From Escherichia phage IMM-001, in sequence record MF630922.1: 32,486 nt of DNA. One strand, written 5' to 3'. The notes under the pieces are model-generated. The model was not told where the DNA came from, searched no databases, and saw only the letters and a program-made list of their open reading frames with translations. Both the position numbers and the translations under genes were made by a program. Below are positions 56 to 32,486 of the stretch, piece after piece. Position 1 is the stretch's first letter, and each line of letters starts with the position of its first letter.

Positions 56-228
56 TTATTGATGTGTTAGTGAATGAATGTTGGAAGAACTACCATACAA
101 GTTGATTTTGATTCTGGCTGAGCCATTTTACGGTATACGTGTAACTTCTGTATATTCATTGTAGTCACAAAAGTAAGTGACCACTAACATACGTTTTTAC
201 GCGAAATATACACGCCATATACAATATA

Positions 229-297
229 ATATCTATATATATCAACCTTTTACTATATTATTATTATTATTATTATATATATGTATACTGTGTATAC
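229..297 (+). repeat. AT-rich ~65-bp repeat, copy A, containing (TTA)6 microsatellite at 258..275
   Basis: Core atatctatatatatcaaccttttact + (TTA)n + tactgtgtata is shared with 27746..27806; lies in the 574-bp ORF-free leader region. Confidence 0.8.
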
Positions 298-340
298 CGC
301 TCATAGATTAAATAGTTGATATATTCCTCTGTGATATTCT

Positions 341-4426: not shown

Positions 4427-4502
4427 GTTCTGCTGGCGTAACAGGATAACGCAAAGACCTCCTAAGTCTTAGTTACTGGTTCGAGTCCAGTGCGGAACAC
4501 CA
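4427..4502 (+). tRNA. tRNA-Arg, anticodon CCU (reads AGG), 76 nt with encoded CCA
   Basis: Hand-folded cloverleaf: acceptor gttctgc/gcggaac with one G-U, D stem gcgt/acgc, anticodon stem aagac/gtctt, loop ctCCTaa, variable agtt, T stem actgg/ccagt, T loop ttcgagt, discriminator A. Confidence 0.85.
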
Positions 4503-4701: not shown

Positions 4702-4754
4702 AAGAAGTTCTACTCTCTGGTTGTTTCATCTCTCTCGTTGTTGTTCGACACTTC

Positions 4755-26828: not shown

Positions 26829-26870
26829 ACTATATCTCATTCTTGAGATTTGTCTTTAGCTATTCGTGCT
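26829..26870 (-). promoter_or_regulatory. Conserved IR promoter-like cassette copy 8, variant (AGCACGAATAGCTAAAG, 22 nt, TATAGT), overlapping the MTase stop
   Basis: Motif family on minus strand upstream of the lipoprotein gene. Confidence 0.5.
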
Positions 26871-27578
26871 GTTTATTCTATTTTTTGCGACATTAAAATA
26901 CTCAGTATCTAGCTCTATACCTATAAATGACCTGTTTGTGTTTACGCATGCTACGCCAGTTGTTCCGCTACCCATGCAGTTATCAAGAACTAAGTCACCC
27001 TCGTCAGTGTATGTTTTTATTAGGTACTCCATCAAGGAAACCGGCTTTTGCGTTGGGTGTAGTGATGATTTCTGCTTGTCGCTAGCCATCTTTATCACAT
27101 CCCTTGGGTATCTCATTGTTGAATCATAAGATAGTGATTCGAAATTCTGATCTCCATAGTTTGTTCCATTGTCGTTCCTCTTTGTTGCTGTTTTTCTTTT
27201 GTGACCCTCTGTCATTTGCGGGTTGTATTTGTAAGGTTTTTTGTAGAAAACAAGTATGTTTTCATGAGCCTTCATCGGAGCTCTCTTGGCATTAAGGTGT
27301 CCGGTTGCATGTGTTTTTTCCCATATCCACTCATGCTTCAACATTTCAAGATTGGAGCACCCGAGTACTTTATCGAATGGTGTTTGCGCCGTAAGTACAA
27401 TTGCACCCTTGCACACCCTCCTGTATTGAGTCCATAGCAAGTCAAGGTCTATAACTGAATCCCACTTGTTTCTGGTTGTTCCGTATGGTAAGTCGCACAA
27501 AATCATGTCAATTGAATTGTCTGGGATTTCTTTCATAAGCTCAAGGCAGTCGCCATTCATTAATTTAATCATTTCCAT
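26856..27578 (-). CDS. orphan DNA methyltransferase, beta-class, DPPY motif (240 aa; may start at second ATG 27572)
   Basis: Motif IV ILCDLPYG near N-terminus and motif I VLDNCMGSGTTG near C-terminus; no adjacent restriction enzyme gene. Confidence 0.8.
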   Translation of the reverse strand: MEMIKLMNGDCLELMKEIPDNSIDMILCDLPYGTTRNKWDSVIDLDLLWTQYRRVCKGAIVLTAQTPFDKVLGCSNLEMLKHEWIWEKTHATGHLNAKRAPMKAHENILVFYKKPYKYNPQMTEGHKRKTATKRNDNGTNYGDQNFESLSYDSTMRYPRDVIKMASDKQKSSLHPTQKPVSLMEYLIKTYTDEGDLVLDNCMGSGTTGVACVNTNRSFIGIELDTEYFNVAKNRINSTNS

Positions 27579-27603
27579 CTCTCATTGCGTTTTTGTTGTG
27601 ATG

Positions 27604-27646
27604 ATTATACATAACCAAGCAAGGGTGTCTTTAGCTATTCGTGCTA
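27604..27646 (-). promoter_or_regulatory. Conserved IR promoter-like cassette copy 9, variant (TAGCACGAATAGCTAAAG, 22 nt, TATAAT)
   Basis: Motif family on minus strand upstream of the MTase gene. Confidence 0.55.
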
Positions 27647-27745
27647 CTGGTTACGCGTAACCGATGTAAATCGATGTATACCATATGCATCCGCTGGAAA
27701 TCGTATACGCATTGTTACGCCTAGTTACGCCATAGTTACATTAAA

Positions 27746-27806
27746 ATATCTATATATATCAACCTTTTACTCTTATTATTATTATTATATATATTACTGT
27801 GTATAT
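27746..27806 (+). repeat. AT-rich repeat, copy B, containing (TTA)5 microsatellite at 27773..27787
   Basis: Shares core with 229..297; lies in the 535-bp ORF-free region between divergent blocks. Confidence 0.8.
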
Positions 27807-28113
27807 CATGTAACCACTGTTCTGGAGTGTTCCGGCTATAATTTTTATATCATGTGATTTTATACAGTATTTCGCGGCACATATACCAATGCACCACCCG
27901 CTAAAATCGGTATACACGGTATACGCATTATTTACATTGAGCTATAGCGGCCCAGCCGGAGCAGTTAAGCGTAACTAATGCCAATGTCTACACGTAATTA
28001 CAAAATTATACGCGTATACTTGATTAATTAATCGGGGATACCAATTAGACGTGGTGACAAGCGTTCTGCATAATTATCACATCGAAAGCAAACAACCATA
28101 GAGAGATAGAGAA

Positions 28114-28311: not shown

Positions 28312-29283
28312 ATGACATTTACCGTATACACCAACGACGAACTAACAAACGAATCCTATCACGAAGAGCAGAGCCACATCTCTGGCTCTTCACTGGCTGA
28401 GATTCTCGCCACTTCACCAGCAAAATGGAAATTCAAGCAGCGCGATAACTCAAGCGCAGCACTTAAGTTTGGCACTCTAAGTCACTGCATGATGCTTGAG
28501 CGTGAGGCGTTCGATTCAACCTACATGCGAGCCACTGACTTTGATGAAGTTGAGGGGTTAATCACAAGCCAAACCGCGTTATCGGCAGCACTTAAGAAAG
28601 TTGGAGTTTCTGGTACGTCAGGAAAAGGCTATAACGAGCTAGTAGAGATGATGTACAAGTGCGGTGAGGATTGGCCTGTTAAGTGGCTAATTGAACAGCA
28701 GGAGAGCGCTGAGGCGTTAATTAGTGGCAAGGAGTTGGTTAGTGCGAAAGATTACGATAAGGTAATCGCAATGCGCGAGGTTCTGACCAATATCCCAGCT
28801 TACGATGCAGTTATTAATTCACCAACAGCGCAGAAAGAGCTATCAATCTTTGGTGAGATTCTTGGATGCGGCGTTAAGGTTAGACTTGACCATGTGGATG
28901 TTGTTGATGGCGCGGTTTACATTACTGACTACAAAACCACAGCAGACGCAAGTCCTCGAGGATTTGGTAAGTCGGCTTATGACCATGGATACCTTTGCAA
29001 GATGGCACTCCAGCGCGATTTGTTTGTTAAGGCGTTTAGCGAGAAGCGTAAGGTTGTAGTTCGTCTTCTGGCGCAGGAGAAGACAGAGCCTTATTTGCCA
29101 ATGTGCTACACGCTCACAGATGAGCAGCTTCACATTGGTCGCCTTCAATATATGGAAGCACTTGCCACGTACAAGCAGTGTAAGGAACTTGATGTTTGGC
29201 CTGGATACAGTAATGGGATTACAGAGCAAGATTTAATGATTCCTGAATGGGTAGCAAAACAATACGGAGAGATATTAAAATGA
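28312..29283 (+). CDS. PD-(D/E)xK family nuclease, RecB-like domain (323 aa); likely recombination exonuclease
   Basis: VRLDHVDVVD and YITDYKTT resemble nuclease motifs II and III (hhD / D-Y-K); sits upstream of Erf. Confidence 0.6.
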   Translation: MTFTVYTNDELTNESYHEEQSHISGSSLAEILATSPAKWKFKQRDNSSAALKFGTLSHCMMLEREAFDSTYMRATDFDEVEGLITSQTALSAALKKVGVSGTSGKGYNELVEMMYKCGEDWPVKWLIEQQESAEALISGKELVSAKDYDKVIAMREVLTNIPAYDAVINSPTAQKELSIFGEILGCGVKVRLDHVDVVDGAVYITDYKTTADASPRGFGKSAYDHGYLCKMALQRDLFVKAFSEKRKVVVRLLAQEKTEPYLPMCYTLTDEQLHIGRLQYMEALATYKQCKELDVWPGYSNGITEQDLMIPEWVAKQYGEILK

Positions 29284-29744
29284 ATAAAGATTGCTGGCAG
29301 ACACCATTAGAATTATTTAATCAACTAAATGATAAGTACAATTTCCAGGTTGACGCGTGCGCAAGTCAAGAGAATGCTTTGTGTGAGCATTTTTGGACCG
29401 AAGATGATGACTGTTTGCAGCAGGATTGGGGTGATGAAAATGATTTTGTTTGGTGCAACCCACCATACAGCAACCCATTGCCATTTGTCGAAAAGTGCCA
29501 GGAGTACGGTTACGCTGTTATGCTTTTAAATCAGGACACATCAACGAAATGGGCTAAGATAGTTTTTGAAAAATCCTCAAAGGTAATACTGTTATCAGAT
29601 AGGGTTAGGTTTATAAACCCATCGACGCTCGAGATTGGGAAGTCAAACCCAAAATGCCAGATGATTGTAGTGTTCGATAATAGTGTGGAGCATGGGCCTG
29701 TCATAAGGTGGTGCTCAATAAAAGATATTCACAAAAACATCTAA
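29280..29744 (+). CDS. Dam-like phage N6-adenine DNA methyltransferase (154 aa)
   Basis: N-terminal CWQTP and catalytic NPPY motifs; ATG 29280 overlaps upstream stop. Confidence 0.7.
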   Translation: MNKDCWQTPLELFNQLNDKYNFQVDACASQENALCEHFWTEDDDCLQQDWGDENDFVWCNPPYSNPLPFVEKCQEYGYAVMLLNQDTSTKWAKIVFEKSSKVILLSDRVRFINPSTLEIGKSNPKCQMIVVFDNSVEHGPVIRWCSIKDIHKNI

Positions 29745-29788
29745 ATAGCACTAATTGCTAAAGATAAAATTAACAGGTGTGGTATGAT
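29744..29788 (+). promoter_or_regulatory. Conserved IR promoter-like cassette copy 6 (AATAGCAC-taa-TTGCTAAA, 22 nt, TATGAT), overlapping the Dam-like stop
   Basis: Motif family; leader accacatcaacaacgagatgg. Confidence 0.55.
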
Positions 29789-29819
29789 TACCACATCAAC
29801 AACGAGATGGTTTAAGCAA

Positions 29820-29963
29820 ATGAAAGTATTTAAAAGTAAAATATGTAGCTACATTAAAATGGCCATTAATCGAAACGATGATATTATAAAAACAATAGAT
29901 ATAAAACCTGGCGACGAGGTTTTTGTCATAATCGAAAAGTCTATAGCGTTAGAACTTGCATAA
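29820..29963 (+). CDS. hypothetical small protein (47 aa, below threshold)
   Basis: ATG downstream of cassette copy 6; the in-frame upstream ATG 29784 lies in the promoter-like element. Confidence 0.3.
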   Translation: MKVFKSKICSYIKMAINRNDDIIKTIDIKPGDEVFVIIEKSIALELA

Positions 29964-31140: not shown

Positions 31141-31163
31141 AGGCCCCTTTCGGGGCCTTTTTA
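31141..31163. terminator. Bidirectional rho-independent terminator
   Basis: aggcccc-tttc-ggggcct then T5; convergent genes on both sides. Confidence 0.7.
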
Positions 31164-31691
31164 TGGCATGTTTACTCGAATTGAAACGAACGAGTCAGAA
31201 GGTATATCTATAGGGTCTCCGTTACTGAAGCCGTCAATTTTATTTCTCGCGAAAGACGGAGATGAATCGTGAGTGCGATGATAAGTTTTAACAACTATTG
31301 AACCATCAGCTTCAACCTCGTAATCTAGCCATATTCTAGGCTGCTTATTCAAGTCTACAGGTACCTCAAATCCACCGTTAACACCGCCCCAAGAAGTGTC
31401 AGAATTTAGGCCAAGCACACCTGATACCTTATAAACACCAGTAGAAACCCTCTCCACTGAAGCTCCTTCTGATTCCTCGTTTGTTTCAAAACTCCCATCT
31501 CGGAATACCTTAATTATAGGTGAGGCCACTTTGACGAAACCGCTAGGGTCCACTGTTGTGTTTAATCCGTGTAAAAGTTCCATTACCGCAAGTCCGCCAT
31601 TATAAGTTGAGTTAGCTATATAACAACGCCTTGCCCCATAAGATATGGCAAGCTGACCCCACTCGCGTGGAGTTGGGCCAGGCATATCCAT
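31161..31691 (-). CDS. tail-fibre-like protein, C-terminal part (176 aa from first ATG); frame stays open upstream to 31970 with no start codon
   Basis: Upstream in-frame translation ...NLQNKLQARSNLGLGTSATINHGDDAGQ... looks fibre-like; no ATG/GTG/TTG in 93 upstream codons. Confidence 0.4.
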   Translation of the reverse strand: MDMPGPTPREWGQLAISYGARRCYIANSTYNGGLAVMELLHGLNTTVDPSGFVKVASPIIKVFRDGSFETNEESEGASVERVSTGVYKVSGVLGLNSDTSWGGVNGGFEVPVDLNKQPRIWLDYEVEADGSIVVKTYHRTHDSSPSFARNKIDGFSNGDPIDIPSDSFVSIRVNMP

Positions 31692-32011
31692 GAATACAAC
31701 AGAATCTTTGTGTAAGTTAAAACCGGAACCGTAAGGCTCATATCCATAAGACCATGTTTTTGTTGTCCTATTCGCTGAAAGAAACCTTGGTCCATAAACT
31801 AGCTGGACCTGCCCTGCATCGTCTCCATGATTAATAGTCGCAGAGGTTCCAAGTCCAAGATTGGACCTTGCTTGTAGCTTGTTTTGTAAGTCATTCAGGT
31901 TTTCTTCTTTTTTTAAAAAACTTGATGGATTTACTGAATTAGCGTAATCTGCCGCTTGCTGCGCTGATGCTCAGGGAGCAATCCTTCTTCAGTTGCTCAA
32001 GCGCTTCGCCT

Positions 32012-32179: not shown

Positions 32180-32385
32180 CATCTCTCTATATTTGCTTGT
32201 TATCGAAATCTCTTCAACGTACTCGCTACAACTCGGGATTTTAAACCCGGCCCGGCATCCTGGCAAAAGGACCCGCAAGGCGCTTTGGTGGGTTAGGTAA
32301 CGCTTCCTCACATTGCGCGGTGTCGTTCACTCTTTTTGGTTCCTTTCGGAAGTGACTCAGAGTCCAGCACCGTTTCGATGAATAC

Positions 32386-32431: not shown

Positions 32432-32486
32432 CGTTGGATTTATTGATTGTTGCAGCTATTGCAATGATTCACATGACTATTGCACA

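Follow-up and report, generated by a model that had tools for sequence, protein, structure and literature searches.

We examined a 32,486-bp stretch of Escherichia phage IMM-001 DNA (record MF630922.1; hereafter the window) that carries two copies of an AT-rich element built around a run of TTA triplets. By BLAST the window belongs to an Rtp-like coliphage (Drexlerviridae, Braunvirinae), the nearest records being TR1, TR2, ES, phiA2-1 and JeanPiccard. Colinearity with TR1 and MSK indicates that the last 70 bases of the window run directly into its first bases, and on this closed map just two large stretches of non-coding DNA, hubs A and B of about 550 bp each, separate divergent gene blocks. 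Every hub holds one copy of the element. The blocks and hubs are laid out as follows:

1-574 plus the window end: hub A, containing the packaging initiation (pac) region, copy A of the element and a proximal promoter for the gene at 575-1123; 11 TATAC pentamers
From 575, plus strand: small early open reading frames (ORFs), from the ORF list
4427-4502: tRNA-Arg (anticodon CCT) in the early region, likewise present in TR1 and other T1-like phages
Up to 25549, plus strand: terminase, head and tail genes
Up to 27578, minus strand: a short block with a fibre-associated gene, the cor lipoprotein and a DNA methylase
27579-28113: hub B, with the methylase/cor block on one side (minus) and the recE-erf-ssb block on the other (plus); 15 TATAC pentamers
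From 28114, plus strand: the recE, Dam, erf and ssb block
Window end, minus strand: a short block

A preliminary description of this DNA had reported the paired repeat, and we find that it is real and that both copies have the same orientation: atatctatatatatcaaccttttact begins at 229 and at 27746, as described, and the closing tactgtgtata ends at 296 and at 27805, 1 nt short of the ends given there. The reported repeat numbers also hold, with (TTA)6 at 258-275 and (TTA)5 at 27773-27787 by both Tandem Repeats Finder (TRF) and regular-expression search, and there is no further tract of at least four TTA units anywhere in the window. One copy does lie in each of the large non-coding regions, ahead of a plus-strand block, and the distances to the first downstream gene are 278 and 308 bp (ORFs at 575 and 28114). 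A direct-repeat search returned a 35-nt core with 94% identity between the copies, but the homology is longer than had been said and joins 188-296 to 27704-27805. The Smith-Waterman score of this alignment is 111, against 22.7±3.0 (maximum 37) in 200 composition-preserving (mononucleotide) shuffles, and the similarity is therefore far beyond chance. The copies differ by more than one TTA unit: the distance from TTTACT to CTGTGTATA is 34 nt in copy A and 26 nt in copy B. In the literature searched we found no earlier account of the element, though Rtp and T1 genome papers may mention it.

Both copies have the same order of parts, namely three to four phased TTACGC/TATACAC repeats, an AT-rich flank with a consensus site for integration host factor (IHF), a (TTA)n(TA)n tract and an inverted GTGTATAY site. 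The features of the two hubs are:

90-109, plus strand: the most conserved block of the pac region, CTACCATACAAGTTGATTTT (columns 60-80 of alignment A, identity 0.92)
197-224, plus strand: copy A upstream direct repeats at 10-11 bp spacing, TTACGC (197), ATATACAC (206) and ATATACAA (217), with RTATACRC at 206 (plus); aligned with the copy B repeats
226-252, plus strand: copy A AT-rich flank and exact IHF consensus TATCAACCTTTTA (240-252), conserved in relatives
249-282, plus strand: copy A TTTACT (-35-like), ATA, (TTA)6 at 258-275 and TA run at 274-281; the least stable duplex of the window, alignment identity 0.99
283-298, plus strand: copy A tandem motif GTATAC-TGT-GTATACC, which holds an inverted RTATACRC (290-297)
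303-324, minus strand: copy A inverted ATATATCAAC arm, pairing with 237-258 (82% complementary), with a second IHF-consensus match at 309-321 (minus)
27649-27662: perfect 14-bp palindrome of hub B, GGTTACGCGTAACC, within a fully conserved block (columns 160-180 of alignment B, identity 0.96)
27703-27741, plus strand: copy B upstream direct repeats GTATACGC (27703), GTTACGC (27714), GTTACGC (27724) and GTTACAT (27735); TRF period 10, 3.3 copies
27743-27769, plus strand: copy B AT-rich flank and exact IHF consensus TATCAACCTTTTA (27757-27769), alignment identity 0.97-1.0
27766-27795, plus strand: copy B TTTACT, C, (TTA)5 at 27773-27787 and TA run at 27786-27793; the second least stable duplex of the window
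27795-27814, plus strand: copy B TACTGTGTATAT (inverted RTATACRC at 27799-27806), then ATGTAAC; 98% identity among 23 relatives
27861-27925: further motif copies of hub B, TATACAGTA (27861, inverted partner of ACTGTGTATA) and GGTATACACGGTATACG (27909-27925)
28007-28019: hub B palindrome TATACGCGTATAC, from an inverted-repeat search
28046-28113, plus strand: proximal promoter-like site TAGACG-17-CATAAT with a conserved leader and ribosome-binding site, serving the first B-block gene and separate from the element

Several of these parts mirror one another. The ATGTAAC that closes copy B is the inverted partner of GTTACAT at 27735, and the 27909-27925 motif of hub B is the reverse complement of 283-298 in copy A. 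Within the 303-324 arm, TTGATA alone is conserved among the relatives in alignment A (columns 300-306).

The centre of each copy is exceptionally easy to melt by calculation. In windows of 30, 50 and 100 bp, the two copies rank first and second as the least stable DNA of the entire stretch. At 50 bp they reach -45.1 and -46.2 kcal against a mean of -67.5 (SD 4.3), about 5 SD off the mean, and the next segment stands at -54.1; the minimum of copy A falls at 251-280 / 229-278. The flanking motif is concentrated in the same places. RTATACRC occurs seven times in the 1.1 kb of both hubs and twice in the other 31 kb, compared with 0.8±0.9 occurrences in dinucleotide shuffles of the hubs (none of 1000 reaches seven), and the shorter TATAC occurs 26 times against 9.5±3.2 (0 of 1000 shuffles). 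A convergent pair of these motifs brackets the IHF site and the tract, 84 bp apart in A and 96 bp apart in B. The IHF core WATCAANNNNTTR is matched exactly at 240-252 (plus), 27757-27769 (plus) and 309-321 (minus), but the window holds five matches where 2.2±1.6 are expected, so that a match alone is weak evidence. Directly 5' of the predicted core lies an AT-rich tract, ATATAATATCTATATA in A and TTAAAATATCTATATA in B, and the core variants seen in relatives, CCCT (ES), GCTT (TR1 B) and CCAT (MSK), all fall within NNNN, although these are few events.

Conservation among relatives peaks at the element. Searches with 150 bp around copies A and B retrieve 55 and 96 phage records, respectively, mostly at 90-95% identity, whereas the neighbouring kilobase aligns in just 22 (A) and 7 (B) records at 75-90% identity; in a phage with a near-identical B core, the RecE protein falls to 79%. 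Alignments were made of 16 regions of type A and 23 of type B, drawn from GenBank, IMG/VR and metagenome contigs. In each hub the conservation peak is the element itself: pairwise identity is 0.94-1.0 over about 85 bp of B, from GTTACAT to ATGTAAC (23 copies), and 0.99 over the TTA run of A. The remainder of each hub is non-coding, has 1-nt indels and shows an identity of 0.5-0.9, with flanks and genes at 50-80%. In all relatives the first gene begins about 330 bp after the tract.

The preliminary description had proposed that the TTA tract varies in length between isolates and thereby tunes expression, and had itself named a copy number invariant across relatives as one half of what would speak against this. 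That is close to what a survey of about 44 homologous copies, taken from GenBank phages and metagenomes, found, which counts against the tuning idea. At site B (n = 24) the tract has five units in 22 copies, four in BEK2, and six in IME542, where the TA run is 2 nt shorter. At site A (n = 20) there are seven units in 15 copies, six in the window, Sd1 and MSK, and eight in TR1 and the metagenome contig L041. Differences in unit number tend to be offset by TA-run or point changes. For instance, the six units of the window and Sd1 reflect a point change of the first unit to ATA or CTA that leaves the spacing unaltered, and the eight units of TR1 A are accompanied by a TA run 4 nt shorter, with the overall distance from the upstream repeat preserved. 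TR1 B keeps five units with a TA run 2 nt shorter; MSK A has six units next to a diverged flank (ATTTAGTAC replacing TTTTACT), and its spacing is not comparable. From TTTACT to CTGTGTATA the distance is 34 nt in 12/12 canonical A copies with both anchors and 26 nt in 21/24 B copies. Another 43 near-identical isolates and four T145P1 records give the same BLAST match spans, with no change in length. Slippage is rare but not absent: BEK2 (L025) and BEK3 (L023) differ at site B by four versus five units as their sole difference in 1.1 kb, the clearest such event unless it is a sequencing error, and further one-unit differences are seen between phiA2-1 and TR1 and in contig L041. Judged from these alignments, the TTA tract is constrained in both length and sequence and is not hypervariable. 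The metagenome contigs L041 and L051 stop at the element or within its TTA tract, which fits assembly breaks caused by the A/B repeat.

Counterparts of the element can be recognised in other subfamilies of the Drexlerviridae. Sadiya (Rogunavirinae) retains the module with (TTA)3, two units having become GTAGTA; the total length differs by 1 nt, and in place of the IHF core there is a palindrome. In swan01 (Tempevirinae) an exact IHF consensus is followed by (TTTA)3 and TATGTATGTATAT. The T1-like phage Sfin-3 (L062) has two divergent hubs, at 46159-46841 and 26888-27412, that are paralogous to each other (score 50 versus 22.5±2.5) and less stable than any other segment of its 50-kb genome, at -44.0 each (mean -68.3, SD 4.4). 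These hubs are enriched for TGTCTA (10 versus 0.8) and GTGTAA (8 versus 1.1), and TATAC is not enriched. From these comparisons, paired melting-prone cores appear to be a trait of the family, and the TTA run the way in which the Rtp lineage builds them. The flanking motif changes with the lineage while the hosts stay the same, which argues for a phage-encoded binder rather than a host factor; the pattern points to a co-evolving phage protein as the likely partner of the flanking motif. Host regulators of the OmpR, ArcA or CpxR type, which bind phased repeats, were set aside for the same reason, the motif differing between subfamilies that share a host.

We consider it probable, at about 0.8, that the element acts in cis, is functional and is kept under strong purifying selection, that the same trans-acting factor or factors serve both copies, and that the tract is a near-fixed-length, easily melted spacer central to a bent or wrapped protein-DNA complex. 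For the function of such a complex our leading candidate is more tentative, with a probability of roughly 0.35: the element may be the unwinding core of an origin-type complex, paired in the manner of oriL and oriR of phage SPP1. Where its site is present, IHF would bend the DNA sharply, and the bend would join, across the tract, a phage-encoded protein bound at the convergent flanking sites. The duplex would open at the TTA/TA tract, and divergent promoters around the region should add negative supercoiling that favours opening. Opening would then serve replication from two origin-type elements, the first about 165 bp in from the pac end, the second ahead of recE-erf-ssb. We infer IHF binding, the phage-encoded binder, melting and any role in replication, like every other function considered here, from sequence analysis. 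The preliminary description had offered an origin or a bent-DNA element as a fallback, and this part of it seems to fit the anatomy, with its consensus IHF site, least stable duplex and motif arrays.

We rank the origin role first because it would explain why the centre of the element is the least stable DNA of the genome, why the motif arrays are convergent and phased, why the element is duplicated (as in the SPP1 oriL/oriR precedent; PMC6316719), and why it is independent of the proximal promoters. A further reason is that T1-like phages have no mapped origin, though they rely on host polymerase together with their own primase and helicase (PMC11447400); a 2024 re-annotation of TLS could not locate one (PMC11447400). 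The likeness to SPP1 is considerable. SPP1 is a virulent pac-type siphophage of about 44 kb with two paralogous cis elements, many kilobases apart, that combine direct repeats with an AT-rich unwinding element and serve as its two origin copies, and AT-rich islands mark both origins and regulatory regions (PMC6316719). In SPP1 as in IMM-001 such islands are the strongest composition anomalies of the genome. Exonuclease, annealing recombinase and single-stranded DNA-binding protein are linked to the function of the second SPP1 copy, and copy B lies directly upstream of recE-erf-ssb. The systems also differ: the SPP1 repeats bind a known initiator, gp38, with oriL inside its gene, whereas the element described here has shorter motifs converging around an IHF site, no initiator identified and no sequence similarity to SPP1.

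Several observations weigh against an origin. No recognisable initiator gene stands beside either hub: for the neighbouring early genes Pfam gives DUF7174, DUF7180, HNH and methylases only, with no DNA-binding domain, and the nearest initiator candidates (a DUF3987 protein, primase and helicase) are absent from the 32.5-kb window. The motifs are 5-8 bp long and scattered, and are not classical 18-22-bp iterons. The cumulative GC skew is monotonic and follows gene orientation, and gives no independent origin signal. The IHF consensus is absent from the A copies of TR1 and phiA2-1, from Sadiya and from Sfin-3, so that IHF cannot be a requirement throughout. Islands of AT-rich DNA between divergent operons are typical, too, of ordinary regulatory regions. 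Finally, both copies share the orientation of their downstream genes and contain sigma-70-like hexamers, and the conserved block of about 85 bp is close to the size of an RNA polymerase footprint, which fits a promoter equally well.

These last points lead to an alternative that we hold nearly as likely, if itself tentative: an IHF-assisted early promoter or switch. TTTACT would be its -35 hexamer and the tract would supply an AT-rich spacer and the -10 hexamer, giving the predicted sites TTTACT-16-TATTAT in A and TTTACT-18-TATATT in B (9/12 matches each). The AT-rich/IHF segment would be UP-like or a bending activator, perhaps shifting supercoil-induced melting into the -10 region. The flanking TATAC sites would act as operators through which a phage protein later switches the promoter off, and the transcript would run through a leader of about 300 nt into the early block. 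The upstream activating sequence of ilvPG reportedly combines IHF with supercoil-induced duplex destabilisation in this way (Sheridan, Benham and Hatfield 1998). As at ilvPG, the most easily melted AT-rich DNA contains an IHF site, here a consensus match, and either overlaps promoter-like hexamers or lies just upstream of them; unlike there, the hexamers are weak and the downstream genes are already served by a proximal promoter. The TTTAC-type -35 is reminiscent of T4 early promoters, and early promoters with UP elements occur in T4 and T5.

In favour of a promoter, hexamers with an allowed spacing are present in both copies, which are oriented like the downstream genes, and phiSITE promoters are annotated on the element in CEB_EC3a. 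Numbered from the predicted start, the fully conserved B block reaches from about -62 to +17, roughly the length covered by one polymerase. Hexamers and spacing are kept in most Braunvirinae; Sadiya retains them (TTTAGA-17-TATATT) though two of its TTA units have become GTAGTA, and the TR1 B copy, 2 nt shorter, still offers TATATT at 16 bp. On the other side, hexamers of 9/12 are no clear improvement on those of shuffled AT-rich DNA (sites of this type number 9 in hub A versus 4.3±2.3 and 6 in hub B versus 4.3±1.8), and the geometry is unlike in A and B. BEK2 would be left with a spacer of 15 bp and IME542 with one of 19 bp, yet both are viable phages; the -35 is lost in the A copies of TR1 and phiA2-1, and the cores of Sfin-3, swan01 and K50 have no comparable hexamers. 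A mere spacer, moreover, would not need a pure (TTA)n conserved at the level of sequence. The literature searched yielded no transcription-start or IHF-dependence data for T1-like phages (Drexlerviridae).

Whatever its function, the element is not the proximal promoter of the downstream genes. These have -10/leader modules of their own, and in other subfamilies the site at the proximal position of the first B-block gene is near consensus (TTGACT-17-TATAAT). Two further explanations for the DNA downstream of copy B were rejected. A structured leader RNA is disfavoured by RNAalifold, which gave only weak long-range pairing that amounts to the inverted DNA motif ACTGTGTATA/TATACAGT. Coding is likewise set aside: some records annotate ORFs of 74-143 aa there, but the window and phage ES have no ORF and relatives differ by 1-nt indels. 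In hub A, downstream of the element, a direct repeat CTTGTCAGAAT occurs at 345-355 and 365-375, 20 bp apart (CTTGTAGGAAT in many relatives), and is conserved in the A-type alignments. It can be read as an extended -10 promoter-like site, TTGTCA-18-TGTCAGAAT, or as an operator pair.

A purely architectural or regulatory complex is a less likely alternative. A phage protein and IHF would coat or loop the hubs through the TATAC arrays and so time the divergent promoters, as an early shut-off or a middle switch; the tract would be a flexible spacer in which nothing starts. The arrays extend over about 500 bp in both orientations and are joined by the palindromes GGTTACGCGTAACC and TATACGCGTATAC, the length of the tract is constrained, and a gene for a Roi/KilA/Rha-type DNA-binding protein abuts hub B in most relatives, all of which would suit such a complex. 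IHF-centred wraps are familiar from P1 parS and the Mu O1-IHF-O2 arrangement. However, this explanation accounts neither for the least stable centre nor for the retention of a pure (TTA)n at the level of sequence, and in the window the Roi-type gene is swapped for a methylase while the arrays are still 90-100% conserved.

An origin opened by host DnaA would be a different way to begin replication, and we regard it as very doubtful. Host DnaA would bind the TGTGTATAY 9-mer or 9-mers and extend as a filament onto the T-rich (TTA)n, at 3 nt per protomer, with the IHF bend helping; if true, a T1-like phage, having no polymerase of its own, would bring in the host's initiation machinery at two sites. 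The published DnaA-trio rule (Pelliciari 2021; PMC8287927) asks for a box with at most two mismatches, 0-16 bp from at least three NAN triplets on the 5'-tail strand, and is permissive in AT-rich DNA. Formally both copies comply, with GTATACACA (289-297, minus), a 12-nt spacer and 6-7 TAT triplets in A, and ATATACACA (27798-27806, minus), a 9-nt spacer and five triplets in B. As in the left half of E. coli oriC (unwinding element, R1 and IHF), the T-rich strand carries TTATT motifs, a TGTG-type 9-mer follows on its 3' side and a consensus IHF site is nearby, and the 9-mer TGTGTATAC/T matches 8/9 positions of TGTGNAWAA. In both Sfin-3 hubs, too, the AT core is followed by TGTG-type 9-mers within one mismatch of the DnaA box, as counted by eye. 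The elements are ordered differently in oriC, however, and the trios read 3'-TAT-5' rather than the preferred 3'-GAT-5'. DnaA-box 9-mers with up to one mismatch show no clear enrichment, with 61 in the window against 78±8 expected and 6 in the hubs against 1.9 (p = 0.015). An array of DnaA boxes was rejected on these counts, and both the trio type and an array motif that changes between subfamilies with the same host argue against DnaA.

The position of copy A raises the possibility of a packaging accessory, a cosB-like assembly region for terminase and IHF downstream of the pac cut. The TR1 record annotates pac just upstream of copy A. The PhageTerm start of MSK at 36,862 (PMC8421802) corresponds to position 563 of L060 and to about 93 in the window, inside the conserved 90-109 block, and several GenBank records have a boundary within about 50 bp of this point (Rao1 ends at window position 84, SU57 starts at about 110). 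The tract of copy A thus lies about 165 bp downstream of the mapped terminus, in the packaging direction. In lambda cosB (R3, IHF site I1, R2, R1) and P1 pac, too, short binding repeats flank an IHF site beside the packaging cut. Yet pac has its own repeats. TTGCA-N5-TGCAA palindromes occur in hub A only, at 41-55 and 32450-32464, within direct repeats of about 35 nt (26-60 versus 32435-32469, 80%); the pac repeats also take in 5-14. They lie upstream of the 90-109 block, and together with it they are likely to be the small-terminase recognition sites and the cut region, and this separate family already accounts for pac recognition. The second and better conserved copy, B, lies 27.5 kb away and has neither a homologue of the cut-site block nor the pac repeats, the A/B homology ending at 188; PhageTerm reports a single terminus in MSK (PMC8421802). 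We reject packaging as the main role of the element. Sfin-3 shares GATTGTTGCA...TGCAA repeats.

No likelier than packaging, and largely refuted by the survey of tract lengths, is a contingency microsatellite whose frequent slippage tunes or switches expression: the arrangement, a short tandem repeat between -35-like and -10-like hexamers, does recall the promoter-spacer loci of Haemophilus hif (TA repeats) and Neisseria, and one-unit differences such as that between BEK2 and BEK3 do occur, but those loci are hypervariable within populations, whereas the TTA tract is nearly invariant across the subfamily, its differences are mostly substitutions or compensated by the TA run, and five to seven trinucleotide units are short for high slippage rates.

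In summary of these comparisons, the element resembles the SPP1 origins, part of oriC, cosB and ilvPG and is not demonstrably a member of any of these classes. A mobile element or a borrowed origin was ruled out, as 72,556 plasmids and 5,426 E. coli genomes contained nothing that matched the element. It is also distinct from the 21-nt intergenic repeat aaATAGCACnnnTTGnTAAAA of TLS, T1 and Rtp, which has no described function and lies about 76 nt upstream of many start codons (PMC11447400). That repeat has another sequence, another position and about 9-21 copies versus two, and the TTA element is not a member of its family.

The 21-nt repeat occurs in the window as well. In the form ATAGCAC-N3-5-TTGCTAA(A), with a TAGCA/TGCTA dyad inside, it is present in about nine copies, at 1226, 2273, 3587, 7246, 15596 and 29742 on the plus strand and at 26851, 27625 and 32414 on the minus strand, each about 22 nt upstream of a -10-like CATAAT/TATGAT. 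A conserved 47-nt module, consisting of a -10-like hexamer, a leader ending in ...CACATCAACAACGAGATGGAG and a ribosome-binding site, precedes several genes (1262-1308, 2312-2358, 28067-28113 and 29781-29827), and its reverse-complement copies serve minus-strand genes, for example at 32180-32206 and 4721-4743. At gathering thresholds, a search of the whole window against Rfam returned the tRNA-Arg alone.

In gene content the window departs from its relatives in two respects. Its 32,486 bp do not include some 12.5 kb present in relatives between the fibre-like gene beside ssb and the pac hub. The absent stretch corresponds to GP33-GP57 of phiA2-1 (primase, helicase, VRR-NUC, holin/lysozyme/spanin and the DUF3987 protein), and 31161-31990 (minus) is a frameshifted, truncated remnant of a GP32-like gene. 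Either the window represents a defective derivative that arose by deletion and retains pac and both hubs, or it is an assembly artefact. Secondly, it encodes two DNA methyltransferases, at 26856-27578 (minus) and 29247-29744 (plus). To the left of hub B, at the place of a Roi/KilA-type DNA-binding protein in most relatives, there is an N6/N4 methylase; between recE and erf, the position of an HNH endonuclease in relatives, there is a Dam-family methylase.

The T1-like phages (Drexlerviridae) are a classic group, abundant and a nuisance to industry, and to our knowledge no one has mapped their replication origin, their early promoters or their temporal switch. Two paralogous and strongly conserved cores make up the least stable DNA of the genome in two subfamilies and are accompanied by lineage-specific motif arrays and, among the Rtp-like phages, by a consensus IHF site. 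The analysis corrects a tempting misreading, in that a perfect trinucleotide run appears to be a structural element constrained in length and sequence and not a mutable tuner. We propose that the two cores are good candidates for replication origins or early control switches of T1-like phages. As such they turn the question of the unmapped origin into one of direct experiments, and they offer defined cis elements for engineering or disabling these phages.

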